Below, piece by piece: positions 2,475-14,820 of a stretch of DNA of 32,000 nt. The notes under the pieces are model-generated. The model ran no database searches. It was given only the letters and a program-made list of their open reading frames with translations, and had not been told where the DNA came from. Source of the stretch: Candidatus Pacearchaeota archaeon (lineage in GTDB: Archaea > Nanobdellota > Nanobdellia > Pacearchaeales > GW2011-AR1); NCBI GenBank assembly GCA_038869895.1, contig JAWCQE010000002.1:73034-105033 (forward strand), in the 5' to 3' direction. Numbering within the stretch: the first letter of the stretch is position 1; each line of letters starts with the position of its first letter. The position numbers were made by a program, and so were the translations under genes.

Positions 2475-3209
2475 ATGGCATTAGAATTAAATGCAACACG
2501 AGAACCATACAGAGAATTTTACGGCAAAAATGTATGGCAGATGCCGGAGTTAATAGCTGACGGCAGAGTTCCTATGTCTGTTGCTGGATTAATGCAAAGA
2601 CGACTTGATGTTAGAAATTCTGATGCTGATGTTAAAAGTTCTTACATGGACAATTATTTTGACACAGGAGATGCAGTTTTATATCACCCAGACGGCAGAG
2701 TAAAAATAGTTCTTGATTCTCAAACTTTGAGAGAAATGACACCAGATACTCAAAGAGTTGGTGGAGCATTACTTTTGGGCGAAGATGTTTATGATGCTTT
2801 GCAAGGTGAAGAATTCAAGAAAGGAAAACTTGGAAAAGTAGATGAACGACTTACAAAAGAACAAGCTAAGGCTCATCCAGTTTGGAAAGTTTTAGCAAGA
2901 GACCAAGCATTACTTGATGATTATGCTGATTGTATTTTTGCAGAAGGCAAACAAAGATTTAATGATGATAATGCGATGGGTGTATTCCTAGATTCTGCTG
3001 GAGATAAGCCTAAATTGAGGGCTTGGTGTGTCTGCAGGCTTGGGCTCAGGTCTGACGCCTCTGGCGGGGACAGCCTCGTCAGTGATCATGGTCGTTTCGT
3101 CGGTATAGCGCCGGAGGCACTAAGATTTGATAGCGCATTAAAAGGTTTGGAAGCAACAGTTCGACCTGAATTGCTAGAGCCATTTAGAGAATTTAGAAAG
3201 AAACTTTAA
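2475..3209 (+). CDS. Hypothetical protein with a DGR-type variable C-terminus (candidate DGR target protein)
   Basis: 244-aa ORF, visibly GC-richer than its neighbours. Its 3' end (RAWCVCRLGLRSDASGGDSLVSDHGRFVGI) is repeated downstream in an A-rich form. Confidence 0.7.
   Translation: MALELNATREPYREFYGKNVWQMPELIADGRVPMSVAGLMQRRLDVRNSDADVKSSYMDNYFDTGDAVLYHPDGRVKIVLDSQTLREMTPDTQRVGGALLLGEDVYDALQGEEFKKGKLGKVDERLTKEQAKAHPVWKVLARDQALLDDYADCIFAEGKQRFNDDNAMGVFLDSAGDKPKLRAWCVCRLGLRSDASGGDSLVSDHGRFVGIAPEALRFDSALKGLEATVRPELLEPFREFRKKL
3019..3109 (+). repeat. DGR-like variable repeat (VR) inside 2475..3209
   Basis: Ungapped 91-nt hand alignment to 3393..3483 gives 69 identities. Of the 22 mismatches, 14 lie where the other copy has A. 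This copy has 10 A and the other has 22. Confidence 0.6.
3108..3120 (+). other. Imperfect hairpin GCGCC-GGA-GGCAC immediately 3' of the VR
   Basis: Stem with one mismatch. Nearly the same 14-mer (AGYGCCGRAGGCAC) follows the VR-like region of the 13615..14820 gene but in a different reading frame. It is absent after the 3393..3483 copy. Confidence 0.45.
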
Positions 3210-3392
3210 TTCTGAAAACGTTTTTATACTTAAATTATTATTAATATTAGTCCTGGCAGCCGAAAGGAAACTTTTGAGAAGCTGGGTTATATGCACTTCC
3301 ATGACGGCAACTTTGTTGTCATAAAATACAGCCATAACACCAAATGTTGTGAAATGGCGGTGATAAGTTTAGAGTGGAAGGGCTATGCTTTC

Positions 3393-3483
3393 GGGCTTGG
3401 TATGTCAACAGGCTTGAGAACAGGTCTATCGTTGTTGGCAGGTACGACCTCGACAATGACAATGGTCGTTTCGTCGGAATAAC
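3393..3483 (+). repeat. A-rich second copy of the 3019..3109 repeat; candidate DGR template repeat (TR) or degenerate second VR
   Basis: Only short overlapping ORFs cover it. In the VR frame it reads AWYVNRLENRSIVVGRYDLDNDNGRFVGI with AAC/AAT codons. It shares an A-free 15-nt 3' block, TGGTCGTTTCGTCGG, with the VR and lacks the downstream hairpin. Confidence 0.5.
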
Positions 3484-3657
3484 TCACTTCCCGATAACAG
3501 GACATTTTTTCTTTTTAAAATTTCTTTTGGATTTGATACTTGCCATTACACAATCATAACTGAAAGATTTATACAGTCAGATTTTCTAAACATTCCATGG
3601 CACTTGAATAAAAAGAAATTTTGATGAAACCAATAAAAAAAGTTAAGAAATCTTAGT

Positions 3658-4005
3658 ATGTACTTCCCAGACCAAGATGAGACAGTTTATTATTTTGGTA
3701 AGTTTCTAGCAGAAAGATTAAATCCAGTATTAAGTCCAGATGAATTTTATACGGCAGCAGAATTAGCTTTATGTGACCTTCTGAGAGGTGTTAACGGATT
3801 TACTAATCAACAAATCAAAAGTAAATTAGTTGGTTATCCACTAATAATTTATGGTTTATTAAGAATGATGATTCCAGACATTGCATGTGAAGTTTGTCCT
3901 CGAGACTTTGCTCAAGATGTAAAAGAGAGGCATGAGGCAGTTAATGCACAAATAAGGAAAAATATAATGGCAAAATGCAAAATAAACGAACAACTAACTT
4001 TATAA
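3658..4005 (+). CDS. Hypothetical protein
   Basis: 115-aa ORF with no recognisable motif. Lies between the DGR-like region and tRNA-Val. Confidence 0.4.
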   Translation: MYFPDQDETVYYFGKFLAERLNPVLSPDEFYTAAELALCDLLRGVNGFTNQQIKSKLVGYPLIIYGLLRMMIPDIACEVCPRDFAQDVKERHEAVNAQIRKNIMAKCKINEQLTL

Positions 4006-4232: not shown

Positions 4233-4384
4233 TGAATATTATTAATAATAATCTTAAAATATTATAACCTTATCACTTTTAAAGTTTATCTAATGTTTTC
4301 ACATAAAAAATAATTCTAAGAATTAATCGTTAAATAATATTTTAATTATTTAAAATTAGTTTATTCTCTTTGAGTTTTTTAAGT

Positions 4385-5377
4385 TTAAAAGCTATTTATT
4401 TGGCAGGTTATTTCTTTCCATTGGGCTTGATAAACTGTATCCATATTTAGTAAGCCTGTCATTTTTTGATATTTATTTATAGGACATAATCTCGAACTTT
4501 GACATGTTGTAACCCTTTCAGTTATTCGTATCGAAGAATATCCTGCTTGACAAGTAGGTGAGGTGGTGACGTAACTATCACTAGGGGTTTCTTCTATACC
4601 ATATCTATTCAATCTAGTGCACTTATAAAATTGTGTATTTCTATTTTCAGTAGTGCATCTTTCTCCAACCTCTTTTACTCTTACTTTTAATTCATTATTT
4701 TCCAATGCAACTTGATATTCAAATTTATCTTTTTTATCTTCAAAATATATTGTCTTAAGTAAATTCTTCTTTTCAATTCTTTTATAAAGTGAATTGTCAG
4801 TGTAGATTGTTTTGAAATTTTCGTCGAGAATTATTACACTAGAACTTGCCGTTCCTTGTTGTCCTTTTACACATGTGAAAACATAAGGTTTTCCACTTTC
4901 AAGAGTAGTTGCTCCTGTGTTTATAGGTTCTTTTAATTCTGTATAATTTTGTTTACAGGAGGATGACGTAGTTTCAAGTCCTGTTCCTGTGTCAACTCCC
5001 CCTTCATAAATAATATTTTCAAGGGAGGATATTGAATTCAAATTTGATTCCTCGCTATTTCCGCCTGTTGCATTTGGGATTGTGAATGTAAAAATCCTTG
5101 TTGTTCCCGGAGGCCCTCCATTACCTCCCTCAGGAATATTATAAAAATGCCTTAGATTTTCAAGAATTGTCTGAAGAGAGTAATCTCTTCCTCCTAAACT
5201 AACTTTTATATCTTTTGCATCATGCCATACTATATGTTCTGAAGGATTCCATAATGGGAGAGTATTTTCGTCCTCAGAATCTTCATCAGAACTTTGAGCA
5301 ATTACAAATGTTAATCCTCCTACCAAAACTAAAAGGATAAACATTAATCCATATTTTTTTTCGAAAATAAGACTCAT
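4385..5377 (-). CDS. Secreted or membrane-anchored Cys-rich hypothetical protein
   Basis: 330 aa with an N-terminal hydrophobic segment (LMFILLVLVGGLTFVIA), then an acidic SSDEDSEDE linker and about ten scattered Cys. Confidence 0.55.
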   Translation of the reverse strand: MSLIFEKKYGLMFILLVLVGGLTFVIAQSSDEDSEDENTLPLWNPSEHIVWHDAKDIKVSLGGRDYSLQTILENLRHFYNIPEGGNGGPPGTTRIFTFTIPNATGGNSEESNLNSISSLENIIYEGGVDTGTGLETTSSSCKQNYTELKEPINTGATTLESGKPYVFTCVKGQQGTASSSVIILDENFKTIYTDNSLYKRIEKKNLLKTIYFEDKKDKFEYQVALENNELKVRVKEVGERCTTENRNTQFYKCTRLNRYGIEETPSDSYVTTSPTCQAGYSSIRITERVTTCQSSRLCPINKYQKMTGLLNMDTVYQAQWKEITCQINSF

Positions 5378-7012: not shown

Positions 7013-8889
<1,877 letters not shown>

Positions 8890-12186: not shown

Positions 12187-13461
12187 ATGAAAGAATTAAA
12201 AGGGACTTTTTTAAGGGGATTGACATCTATATTATTATCTTTGCCTCCTTTGGCAACCAATGGTTGTGCATATCATTCTGTTTTTAGGAATAATGAAATG
12301 TCGAATGGAGCTCAATTACTTGAAGATACTAAATTAAATTATGAAAATTATGATGCAATGAGGGAGTATGTTATCGTTAATAATAGGGCTTATCCTAGGG
12401 GAGAAAGTCCTGTAGAATTTGATGAGGAGATAATACAGGTTTCACCTTTACCAGTAAAGAGGTTAAGAGAAATTAACGCCACTTACATAGAATCTCCTGA
12501 TGGAAATATAATAATGAACTATGCTTGTAGAATACCTCCTTCAGACCTTCAAGACTTGATTAAAGATTATCTGCCAGATGGAATCAAAGTTGAAGAATTT
12601 CCCACTAAAAACATGCTCATATTCAGTGGAAAAAAAGAGTCTTTTAATGAAAATAATTTAGGACATCTTTCTAATTTAATAAATCAATTTGACATTCCGC
12701 CAGAACAAATTCGTATCCGTTTAAGAATAGTAGAATATTTTGCGGATAATACCTATGACAGAGACTTATCATTAAATGTTTTGAAGGATTTGATGCCAGT
12801 AATTACATCTTCTCTCCCCAGTAGTTTAGATACAAATAAAAATCCCAATATAGGGACTGCTATACATCCTTTTAATCTTATTACTCTAAATACAAAAAGA
12901 CTTACTTTTGAGGGAGCAATAAAATTTTTAGATAGTTATGGAAAAACAAATACTCTTGCAGACTTGGATTTATTAACTTCAAATGGAAGACCTACTGAAT
13001 TGAAAAATCAAAGTTCAATTCCATATCCAGAAACGCAGATAGTTGGAAATAGTGTATTAGAAACTTTAAGATATAGAGATATTGGGTTGGACGCAAAATT
13101 AATTCCCTTTGCTAATGAGGAGGGATTTATTACAATAAAAGTTGAAAAAGCAGAGTCAGGAGAGCAAACAGGTTTTTCTGGAACAATTCAGAGGCCGATT
13201 TTTAGACTTGCGGATTTAATTACAGAAATAAATGTAATGAATGGATTAACTTATTTTGTAGCGTCTTCGAATTTTACAAGATATAAATCAGTAAATAGAG
13301 GAATCCCTGGAGTTAATAAAGTCCCAGTAATAGGAGATGTTACAACTTCTAGTTCAATTGAAAATATTCAGTCACAGCTTTTATATTTTATAGAAGCACG
13401 TGTAATGGATAGGAGGGATAGAATAACAGGAATTGTGCCATCAATTAGAAATAATCCTTAA
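12187..13461 (+). CDS. Secretin-family protein (GspD/PilQ/pIV-like), putative lipoprotein
   Basis: N-terminal signal ending LATNGC. C-terminal half shows the secretin-domain pattern: LLTSNGRPTELKNQSSIPYP, YRDIGLDAKLIPFANEEGFITIKVE, RPIFRLADLITEINVMNGLTYFVAS, IPGVNKVPVIGDV...QLLYFIEARV. Confidence 0.65.
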   Translation: MKELKGTFLRGLTSILLSLPPLATNGCAYHSVFRNNEMSNGAQLLEDTKLNYENYDAMREYVIVNNRAYPRGESPVEFDEEIIQVSPLPVKRLREINATYIESPDGNIIMNYACRIPPSDLQDLIKDYLPDGIKVEEFPTKNMLIFSGKKESFNENNLGHLSNLINQFDIPPEQIRIRLRIVEYFADNTYDRDLSLNVLKDLMPVITSSLPSSLDTNKNPNIGTAIHPFNLITLNTKRLTFEGAIKFLDSYGKTNTLADLDLLTSNGRPTELKNQSSIPYPETQIVGNSVLETLRYRDIGLDAKLIPFANEEGFITIKVEKAESGEQTGFSGTIQRPIFRLADLITEINVMNGLTYFVASSNFTRYKSVNRGIPGVNKVPVIGDVTTSSSIENIQSQLLYFIEARVMDRRDRITGIVPSIRNNP

Positions 13462-13614
13462 ATTACTTTTATTATTTTTAACATATCTCTTCTTGGTCTT
13501 ACCTTTCCTTGCTTTTCTTCAAGCAATTAACAATTTACCCATATTGTATGTTTTCTCATATAGATTTTTGTAGGTTTTCATTATAATCCTGACCATAGAC
13601 TACCATTAAGAACT

Positions 13615-14820
13615 TTAAAAATTTTCGCGCGTGCCTTCGGCACTAACGACTACTACCTGACCGTGCTCGTACGAATTACGCAAGCAGTCGTAATGCGAAT
13701 TCAAGTTTCGGTTACTATTGAGAAAAGCCCTCGCAAGGCCAAATTGCATAGTACATAATGTTCTATTTCCTCCACTACCTAAAATAGGTAATCCATTCTC
13801 ATCTCCCCTACTAAATCTTTGTTCATGATTACTTTTTACTAATTGTGGAGCATGATATATTTTTCCATCTTCTCTTAAATTAAATGCTAAACCATAATCA
13901 GAACTTTTACTTGCATCAGAACTAGGATTATCTAATTCAAGACTTGTTAGTGGGACCATAACAGGATATTCAATTTTTCCATCTCTTGCCTTAATTTGTT
14001 TAGCTAAATGTTGTGCTAGTTTAGCATTAACTTCACATTGAGTTCTTAAAATTAAGGCTCCATCGTTATAAGTAGAACTTAAATCTAATGTTCCTTGTTC
14101 TAAAATTCTCTCTAAATCTGCCAAGGTTGCTGTTCTAAATCCCCCACTACTTATAATTTGATTAACTAAAACAACCGCAAAAGAATTTGAACCTCTTACA
14201 ACACCATCATAAAAGGATAAAACATTCAAAGTTCCTATTCCGTTATATTCTGATTTAACTCTTTCTTGATATTCCTCTAAAACTTCTTTACCAAATTCTC
14301 CTCTTAAAAGATTAACTTTATGTTTTTGTCCGTTAATATCTAAATCTCTACCTTCAAATTTTGGGATTTCAAATTCTGGTCTAAGTAATCCGAGCCCTGT
14401 AACCTTGTATAATGCTTTTCTTTGCTCTCTTGGAACTTGCGATAATTCCACAATCTTACCAGTTAAGTAAGATTTAGCATCTGATTCTGGAATTCCCAAC
14501 ATTTCTGCTGCTGTGGTTAAATCTTTTTTATTCAGTCTTCTTGCCCTTAATTGTTCTTCTGAAATCTGGTCAACCAATCCTAAATCACTCATACGATAAT
14601 GTTTACCTTCCATTCTATCATCAAATTTTACAGACGCAGATGGTTCACCATCAATAGAATGATCTCCAAAATTACCGATAACTACTCCTTCACCATAATT
14701 CTGGTCTGCAAATCTACTATCTCTTCTAATTTTGATTCTCGCTCCTCTCCCCAATTCCTGTTCAGATAATCTTTTCAGAAGCCATTCTTTCAATTGTTCA
14801 TTCCATGTTTTTTCGGTCAT
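13615..14820 (-). CDS. Hypothetical protein with a DGR-VR-like C-terminus (second candidate DGR target)
   Basis: 401 aa. GC-richer than the flanks, and last gene of a tightly packed three-gene unit. The C-terminus RAFLNSNRNLNSHYDCLRNSYEHGQVVVV parallels the RAW...HGRFVGI end of the 2475 gene. Confidence 0.65.
   Translation of the reverse strand: MTEKTWNEQLKEWLLKRLSEQELGRGARIKIRRDSRFADQNYGEGVVIGNFGDHSIDGEPSASVKFDDRMEGKHYRMSDLGLVDQISEEQLRARRLNKKDLTTAAEMLGIPESDAKSYLTGKIVELSQVPREQRKALYKVTGLGLLRPEFEIPKFEGRDLDINGQKHKVNLLRGEFGKEVLEEYQERVKSEYNGIGTLNVLSFYDGVVRGSNSFAVVLVNQIISSGGFRTATLADLERILEQGTLDLSSTYNDGALILRTQCEVNAKLAQHLAKQIKARDGKIEYPVMVPLTSLELDNPSSDASKSSDYGLAFNLREDGKIYHAPQLVKSNHEQRFSRGDENGLPILGSGGNRTLCTMQFGLARAFLNSNRNLNSHYDCLRNSYEHGQVVVVSAEGTRENF
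13631..13643 (-). other. Perfect hairpin GTGCC-GAA-GGCAC 3' of the VR-like segment
   Basis: 5-bp GC-rich stem with a 3-nt loop inside the last codons of the gene. Homologous at nucleotide level to 3108..3120. Confidence 0.45.
13644..13731 (-). repeat. VR-like segment rich in AAY-derived codons
   Basis: Coding-strand codons are aat agt aac cga aac ttg aat tcg cat tac gac tgc ttg cgt aat tcg tac gag cac. Twelve of the 19 are NNY codons reachable from AAC/AAT by changes at A. No cognate copy was found in the window. Confidence 0.4.

Follow-up and report, generated by a model that had tools for sequence, protein, structure and literature searches.

The window analysed here, a 32,000-nucleotide (nt) stretch of a Candidatus Pacearchaeota contig, contains a diversity-generating retroelement (DGR) locus in which a target gene with a variable region (VR) is followed by a structured RNA, a template repeat (TR) and the residue of a reverse transcriptase (RT) gene. 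In our judgement the locus belongs to the Nanoarchaeota/Pacearchaeota (AvpA) type of DGR and has probably been inactivated not long ago, which left it frozen. The VR/TR pair, the target family and the RNA leader recur in relatives with an intact RT. Of the DGR-clade RT gene that a cassette should contain, only two stubs are found in the window, and the locus is therefore classed as a former DGR and not as a working one.

The repeats were recovered by a direct-repeat search as an 89-nt pair at 3019-3107 and 3393-3481, 76% identical and 374 nt apart. The features of the pair are as follows.

3019..3109, plus strand: VR1, with its variable part at about 3028-3087
3088-3103, plus strand: invariant 3' homology block ATGGTCGTTTCGTCGG, within VR1
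3104-3109, plus strand: VR-specific boundary TATAGC, within VR1
3106..3122, plus strand: target-site hairpin TAGCGCC-GGA-GGCACTA, inside target gene 1
3393..3483, plus strand: TR1, degenerate, with adenines lost at 3429, 3434, 3435 and 3443 and C-to-T changes at 3432 and 3433

When 3393-3483 was set against 3019-3109 with no gaps allowed, 69 of the 91 positions were identical. The downstream copy has an adenine at 14 of the 22 mismatches (hypergeometric P = 4e-6 over 91 nt) and contains 22 adenines to the 10 of the in-gene copy; the 15-nt block TGGTCGTTTCGTCGG, free of adenine, is identical in both copies, and five of the mismatches at non-adenine (non-A) positions of the template are bunched at 3055-3061. 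The initial annotation, made from the letters of the DNA, had given the same position and the same counts, all of which were reproduced, and the adenine enrichment it had noticed is now backed by computed P values. Mismatches at 3104 and 3108 belong to the 3' end of the repeat, which reads GGTATAGC in the gene and GGAATAAC downstream (3477-3483). Position 3108 is G in the VR and A in the TR in 12 of the 12 related loci with the same 3' end, and 3104 is A in every template of the related loci and non-A in all gene copies but one. Judged from these alignments, the two differences are marks of the VR/TR boundary and not diversification. They were set apart for this reason, which leaves 12 of 20 mismatches at the 18 adenine positions of an 84-nt core (P = 1e-5). 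The concentration of TR/VR differences at TR adenines, by which DGRs are recognized, is thus found in the window pair. The in-gene copy encodes residues 182-212 of a 244-amino acid (aa) open reading frame (ORF), and the downstream copy lies within no credible gene. Both copies are located in a G+C-rich island of a genome with 30% G+C.

The gene that carries VR1 was characterized through its homologues, an AF2 model and Foldseek.

2475..3209, plus strand: target gene 1 (244 aa, QW727_01650), predicted AvpA-like C-type-lectin variable protein

The 244-aa protein is QW727_01650 of the Pacearchaeota (DPANN) metagenome-assembled genome (MAG) GCA_038868955.1, and the window also encodes the archaeal ribosomal protein L31e. 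A word-indexed search returned 409 homologues of the protein, and all source-given names among the matches listed are DPANN; an exhaustive profile search extended the family to 1160 cluster representatives. The family is strongly conserved outside one hypervariable patch, RAWxVxxLxxRSxAxGxxxLDxxxGRFVGIAPEAL, in which fixed scaffold residues and hypervariable ones alternate and which coincides with the in-gene repeat. An AF2 model computed from an alignment of 129 diverse sequences reached a predicted local distance difference test score (pLDDT) of 95.9 and a predicted template-modelling score (pTM) of 0.90; an earlier model from a shallow 27-sequence alignment (pLDDT 45) was discarded. The sole significant Foldseek match of the model in the PDB was 5IOO_A, the DGR variable protein AvpA (E 9.5e-10, probability 1.00), with template-modelling (TM) scores of 0.63/0.72 over 223 columns. 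The family profile also aligned with AvpA over the VR-bearing part (E 0.0025). A sequence search of the PDB with a shallow profile gave no match for the 244-aa protein, and neither did a fold search of BFVD. According to the AF2 and Foldseek results, VR1 lies near the 3' end of an ORF with a C-type-lectin fold, as in DGRs, and forms the C-terminal part of that fold, as in the AvpA subclass. The structure prediction that the initial annotation had proposed therefore returned the C-type-lectin-like fold it anticipated.

The sequence around TR1 has the organization predicted for a unit that produces template RNA.

3221..3229, plus strand: TTTTTATAC box, TATA-type, about 25 nt 5' of RT-16
3252..3391, plus strand: RT-16 RNA (Rfam RF03019, by Rfam scan), putative structured 5' leader of the template RNA
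3484..3516, plus strand: TR 3' flank, ..CTCACTTCCCGATAACAGGACA and then a T-run, conserved among relatives

The RT-16 match covers model positions 1-158 with 72.7 bits (gathering score 50) and ends two bases ahead of TR1. RT-16 was found above the Rfam threshold beside the TR in 17 of 17 loci tested, with its end at the TR start or within 1-2 nt of it in every case, and an alignment of the 17 copies contains compensatory changes in 17 of the 30 predicted pairs. A TTTTTATA(C/A) box lies 22-27 nt 5' of the first base of RT-16 in 16 of the 17 loci (the window, L005, L007, L010, L014, L018, L020, L027, L028, L031, L034, L039, L044, L048, L052 and L054). The TTTTTATAC box is a probable archaeal TATA-type promoter of the template RNA, and the conserved distance of the box suggests that this RNA begins with the 5' end of RT-16. 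Similarly, the TR 3' flank is a probable spacer-like element and terminator of the template RNA. The flank reads AATAAC.., a small stem and ..ACAGGAC before the T-run in the window, L005, L018, L028, L048 and others. In convergent loci the T-run is the antisense of the lysine codons at the RT C-terminus, so that the RT tail and the likely template-RNA terminator occupy the same bases.

We compared 39 loci from species-representative genomes and the contexts of close homologues. The order that recurs among them is target gene with VR, TTTTTATA box, RT-16, TR, short conserved 3' flank and RT. The RT is about 470 aa long with RVT_1 and HTH_40 domains, and it is encoded in one of two ways: convergently, in which case its stop codon abuts the TR flank, or on the same strand just downstream. 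The target/RT-16/TR layout was present in all 17 loci checked, and dozens of genomes have an orthologous architecture with a DGR RT next to it. Loci with a full-length RT have 9-18 VR/TR mismatches, all or all but one at TR adenines; by these sequence features they are textbook DGRs. The proposal that the window holds the VR/TR pair of a DGR in a DPANN archaeon is thus upheld by the Pacearchaeota MAG as host and by the same pair in at least 12 relatives. In L048, the closest intact relative, the VR (3899-3990) has a 3-nt insertion with respect to the TR (4325-4415), and the other differences are at adenines only. Target gene 1 lacks 19 codons that its relatives have just 3' of the VR (57 nt in the comparison with L048). 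The relatives also have a hairpin, TAGCGCC-GGA-GGCGCTA, inside the gene and just 3' of each VR. Its stem is perfect in 19 of 21 VRs, with compensatory changes in two lineages, and is broken only in the window and in L005; in the window a synonymous G-to-A change at 3119 produces a C3109/A3119 mismatch. Among the cis elements of homing, the window thus has the boundary motifs and a hairpin with one stem mismatch.

Two remnants of RT genes were identified in the window, one next to TR1 and the other 10 kb away.

3484..3573, minus strand: RT gene 3' stub, ..KSFSYDCVMASIKSKRNFKKKKCPVIGK followed by the stop codon, RT residues about 444-470, hidden Markov model (HMM) positions 449-466
13456..13581, minus strand: RT gene 5' stub of 42 codons, MKTYKNLYEKTYNMGKLLIA and RKARKGKTKKRYVKNNKSNLR separated by a stop codon, RT residues 1-42

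The RT beside TR1 is reduced to its last 17-28 codons. This 3' stub is identical to the RT of L048 at 14 of 16 residues (tblastn, DCVMASIKSKRNFKKK, E 9e-6), and homology with L048 at the DNA level extends from the target gene across RT-16 and the TR as far as 3556. The stop codon of the stub abuts TR1, and intact convergent loci place the 3' end of the RT likewise and in the same orientation. These alignments indicate that the RT next to TR1 is destroyed and not merely absent. The 5' stub was detected by tblastn (E 1e-5) and by the RT HMM (positions 2-39, E 1.7e-7); it has an in-frame TGA (13519-13521) at the position of an RT tryptophan and is truncated where it runs into the 3' end of the convergent gene for a secretin-domain protein. 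Both stub junctions are contiguous and without differences in two NCBI contigs and in Logan contigs of two runs. All six reading frames of the whole window were searched with a profile built on 12 full-length RTs of the clade, and the two stubs, both on the minus strand, were the only matches. A Pfam scan of 21 ORFs (the unshadowed ones of at least 137 aa, except GroEL and a thioredoxin-reductase-like gene) found no RVT_1, and the genes called in the flanks of the window (about 10 kb on the left side, 4.4 kb on the right) include no RT. There is no QW727_ RT among the best 120 RT homologues, which is uninformative since thousands of homologues exist. The earlier statement that the 32 kb contain no RT ORF consequently stands for intact genes, and it had missed the two remnants.

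Loss of the RT is accompanied across the related loci by a stepwise increase in non-A mismatches. In 15 VR/TR pairs with full-length or only frameshifted RTs, 5 of 202 mismatches are non-A. L014, in which RT positions 282-466 remain, has 2 non-A mismatches; L005, in which positions 373-466 remain and are frameshifted, has 5; and the window has 8 among its 20 mismatches. The difference in non-A mismatches between stub loci and intact loci is significant (Fisher P = 2e-7). In two lineages, represented by L007/L008/L016 (11647-13037, minus strand) and L017 (11351-12762, minus strand), the RT is split into two frames and the VR/TR differences are still all at adenines; no other relatives lack one of the consensus TR adenines. 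These split RTs may represent the earliest stage of decay, or they may be assembly errors.

To read the direction of change, a consensus TR was derived from 12 relatives. At 15 adenine columns (15 of 17 against the lineage-ancestral TR) the window VR departs from this consensus, and when four lineage states shared with the window TR are set aside, the ordinary substitutions of the VR are only those at 3072 and 3086. TR1 has six private substitutions, four of which are at adenines invariant in 12 of 12 relatives (3429, 3434, 3435 and 3443). Relatives have lost none or one of the consensus TR adenines, and both relatives with one loss have frameshifted RTs. Because the six private changes of the TR are absent from the VR, no homing can have occurred since those changes arose. 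The bunching of non-A mismatches at 3055-3061 is likewise explained by the clustering of private changes at 3429-3435. Five of the six private substitutions fall within these 7 nt, where AATGCCAAT became ATCGTTGTT; the cluster has the look of a single complex event (mis-homing of cDNA, for instance, or gene conversion from another VR) and not of independent point mutations. The VR is identical across the independent assemblies that cover it. Logan assemblies of runs SRR27730039 and SRR27730035 match the window wherever present and break at window positions 2424, 3088, 3921 and 4429, of which 3088 is the exact end of the VR variable part; low coverage or strain heterogeneity could account for such breaks, and no conclusion is drawn from them.

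The initial annotation had placed an orphan, a trans-served and a recently decayed target locus side by side. The RT stubs, the rise of non-A mismatches with RT loss, the lost TR adenines and the broken hairpin together favour decay; a rising non-A count speaks for decay over service in trans, and so do a hairpin that is broken only in the two most eroded loci, a VR that does not differ between assemblies and the 19 codons lost from target gene 1. In the intact element, a promoter-driven RNA would consist of the RT-16 leader, the TR and a short 3' spacer. The DGR RT of about 470 aa, convergent or downstream on the same strand, would copy this RNA and miscopy the template adenines, and the cDNA would replace the VR near the 3' end of the target, guided by the GGTCGTTTCGTCGG block and the G+C-rich hairpin with its GRA loop. 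The ligand-binding face of the C-type-lectin protein would thereby be rewritten. In the window, the RT beside TR1 would have been deleted to its last 17-28 codons, and a second RT remnant (the first 42 codons, with a stop) would have been left 10 kb off, beside a target gene whose template was also deleted. With no enzyme, and presumably no other RT in the genome serving the cassette, the VR would have been frozen in its last diversified state. The parts of the cassette, freed from the constraint of homing, would then have drifted, with six substitutions in the TR, two in the VR and one base pair of the hairpin.

The second remnant lies beside a second target gene.

13615..14820, minus strand: target gene 2 (401 aa, QW727_01700), from another family of DGR targets
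About 13659-13738, minus strand: VR2, within target gene 2
13631-13643, minus strand: hairpin GTGCC-GAA-GGCAC, in target gene 2
13587..13610, minus strand: TR-to-RT spacer remnant CTTAATGGTAGTCTATGGTCAGGA, 24 nt, the same spacer as between TR2 and RT in L052

The C-terminus of the target gene 2 family alternates conserved and hypervariable positions on a conserved scaffold. In L054, target 2 with its VR2, RT-16, TR2 and RT are on one strand, and the core mismatches are all at TR adenines. L052, which is syntenic with the window, has target 2 with its VR2, a 289-aa ORF, RT-16, TR2, the spacer and an RT stub of about 48 codons. The block with the 289-aa ORF, RT-16 and TR2 is missing from the window, in which the spacer remnant is joined directly to the stop codon of target gene 2; a search of the window for a remnant of TR2 or RT-16 near target gene 2 found neither. 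We also considered target gene 2 as a remote target of TR1, and the DNA alignment was no better than with shuffled sequence; hhalign gave nothing for a kinship of the two target families, and target gene 2 was assigned to a different cassette. A gene of the target 2 family is present at 6001-6771 of L053 (GCA_000405225.1, a 273-kb contig), with no TR or RT within 6 kb. It resembles the "partial DGRs" of Paul et al. 2015, and the locus also has an intein-containing eRF1 gene.

Since the 5' stub is 68% identical (23/34) to the RT stub of L052, its closest match, and only 42% identical to the RT of L048, we think that the two stubs come from two different RT genes and mark two dead cassettes 10 kb apart. 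It is possible, though we hold it to be rather unlikely, that the stubs are instead the ends of one RT that served both targets and whose middle was replaced by a 9.9-kb housekeeping block. The stubs do share the minus strand and follow each other as the ends of one gene would, the ancestral arrangement of target 1, RT-16, TR1, RT, TR2 and target 2 would be compact, and L048 has a second target paralogue upstream of its RT. Such a single gene is at odds with the separate affinities of the stubs, the 5' one to the target 2 cassette of L052 and the 3' one (14/16) to L048. L005 and L014, moreover, show recurrent simple 5' deletions that leave a 3' stub, and the tRNAs, GroEL/ES and PPDK between the stubs are unlikely cargo for an insertion.

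Other genes of the window also deserve mention. A 115-aa ORF (3658-4005, plus strand) lies beside the RT breakpoint, and a 330-aa ORF (4385-5377, minus strand) has an N-terminal hydrophobic segment. Searches of Pfam and PHROGs gave no match for the 244-, 115-, 330-, 401- and 137-aa ORFs. The 424-aa protein encoded at 12187-13461 (plus strand), whose gene truncates the 5' stub, has a bacterial Secretin domain (PF00263, E 5e-16), and its gene adjoins bacterial-type GroES/GroEL genes (7013-8617 and upstream). Secretins are outer-membrane channels and hence odd in an archaeon.

Some of the evidence weighs against a recently inactivated DGR. Compared with active loci, neither the RT-16 match (72.7 bits) nor the target ORF nor the promoter box has deteriorated, and their undamaged state implies either that inactivation was recent or that these parts are still under selection. 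Nanoarchaeota genomes can carry at least four DGRs (Paul et al. 2015, PMC4372165), and a same-clade RT elsewhere in the genome, beyond the window and its flanks, could in principle use the template RNA. The convergent layout means that RT and template are on separate transcripts even in intact loci. In addition, Wu et al. report several non-A substitutions in some DGRs of the candidate phyla radiation (CPR) and DPANN that have RTs. The corresponding alternative, that the cassette remains active through a DGR RT acting on it in trans from elsewhere in the genome, with the local stubs as relics of a redundant copy, is in our view improbable. It would accord with Nanoarchaeota genomes that have several DGRs and with RT-less partial cassettes read as possibly remotely served, and the promoter box, RT-16, TR and 3' flank do form a structurally intact template RNA unit, whose separation from the RT transcript would be no obstacle. 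However, each round of homing overwrites the VR with TR sequence, and the six TR-private substitutions are inside the homing tract. Continued service in trans also conflicts with the climb of non-A mismatches with RT loss, the mismatched homing hairpin, the identity of the VR between assemblies and the lack of an RT among the called genes of the flanks.

Two more speculative ideas, to which we give still less credence, are that promoter, RT-16, TR and spacer are an autonomous module usable in trans by any RT of the clade and, as a separate possibility, that the TR was corrupted by mis-homing of mutagenised cDNA or by gene conversion from a VR. If the module were autonomous, an RT encoded elsewhere in the genome could now and then still write the RT-less cassette of the window; if templates are corrupted in this way, DGRs would have a built-in route to their death.

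The initial annotation had also weighed a reading in which the true template is a third, unseen copy and the two known copies are both VRs of it. Every non-A column can indeed be accounted for by adenine in a shared ancestral sequence, and this part of the argument holds. The remainder is very hard to reconcile with the downstream copy, which lies in no credible gene, has the TR boundary GGAATAAC and no hairpin, and is preceded by RT-16 and the promoter box, as are the TRs in 17 of 17 loci. The supposed common template is the consensus of orthologous TRs at the same position, and the sequence comparison identifies it as the ancestral state of TR1. Finally, the pair could be taken for a repeat that arose by chance or by ordinary segmental duplication, unconnected with any retroelement. 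The shortness of the repeat (91 nt at 76% identity) could speak for this view, which is already refuted by the adenine enrichment (P = 1e-5), the RT remnants, the adjacent RT-associated RNA family and the orthologous layout with a DGR RT in dozens of genomes.

DGRs of DPANN archaea and RT-less partial cassettes are already known, and the element itself is not new. The locus is of interest because RT stubs, non-A mismatches that increase in a graded series, loss of TR adenines and breakage of the hairpin here separate a fossil from a trans-served cassette, and these features provide a practical rule for judging orphan VR/TR pairs in metagenomes. In this clade, non-A TR/VR differences go along with RT loss, whereas those of CPR/DPANN elements had earlier been attributed in part to an RT of low fidelity. 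The comparison also gives the orphan Rfam family RT-16 a concrete candidate role, as the 5' leader that abuts the TR in this archaeal DGR clade, in both layouts of the RT.

The window locus shares with the DGR of the Bordetella phage BPP-1 the adenine-specific transfer from TR to VR, a VR at the 3' end of a C-type-lectin target, a shared 3' homology block and a hairpin/cruciform 3' of the VR, which in BPP-1 is needed for homing. It differs from BPP-1 in several respects. The hairpin of the window type has a 3-nt loop and lies inside the ORF, the RT of the clade has a C-terminal HTH_40 extension and is often convergent with the template, and the RNA structure (RT-16) is 5' of the TR, unlike the RT-10 element, which has its place between TR and RT. 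No Avd gene was noticed in the window, in which Avd-like ORFs were not searched systematically, and the RT of the window is gone. RT-16 itself was described as one of 19 motifs "nearby to reverse transcriptase genes", among which RT-10 alone had been linked with a DGR (Weinberg et al. 2017, PMC5737381), and our literature search found no later paper giving RT-16 a role. The window match passes the curated threshold over the full model of RF03019, in agreement with that description. In contrast to a family known only as "found nearby to RT genes", RT-16 abuts a DGR TR in 17 of 17 loci here, and in the window it occurs without an intact RT gene nearby.

The closest known systems are those of Nanoarchaeota. 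AvpA, the variable protein of a DGR of that group, has a C-type-lectin fold (Handa et al. 2016, PMC5006420; PDB 5IOO); the window target is only 16% identical to it and comes from a large separate family. The DUSEL4 Nanoarchaeota DGRs were reported together with RT-less "partial DGRs", for which it was left open whether they are fossil or remotely served (Paul et al. 2015, PMC4372165). The window locus resembles the DUSEL4 DGRs in its DPANN host, its AvpA-like C-type-lectin target, and a VR that lies inside the gene and is followed by a G+C-rich hairpin with a GRA tri-loop. The boundary is GG(T/G)(A/G)T in the VR and GGAAT in the TR in both, and the boundary pair of the window recalls the initiation of mutagenic homing pair IMH/IMH* TGGGGT/TGGAAT of Nanoarchaeota DGRs. 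A GRA tri-loop hairpin inside the target together with GGAAT at the TR boundary, the combination typical of Nanoarchaeota, is thus found in the window. The DUSEL4 partial cassettes, by contrast, are without a TR, whereas the window keeps both its TR and its RNA leader, and its loss of the RT can be read as decay through the stubs and the drift that followed inactivation.

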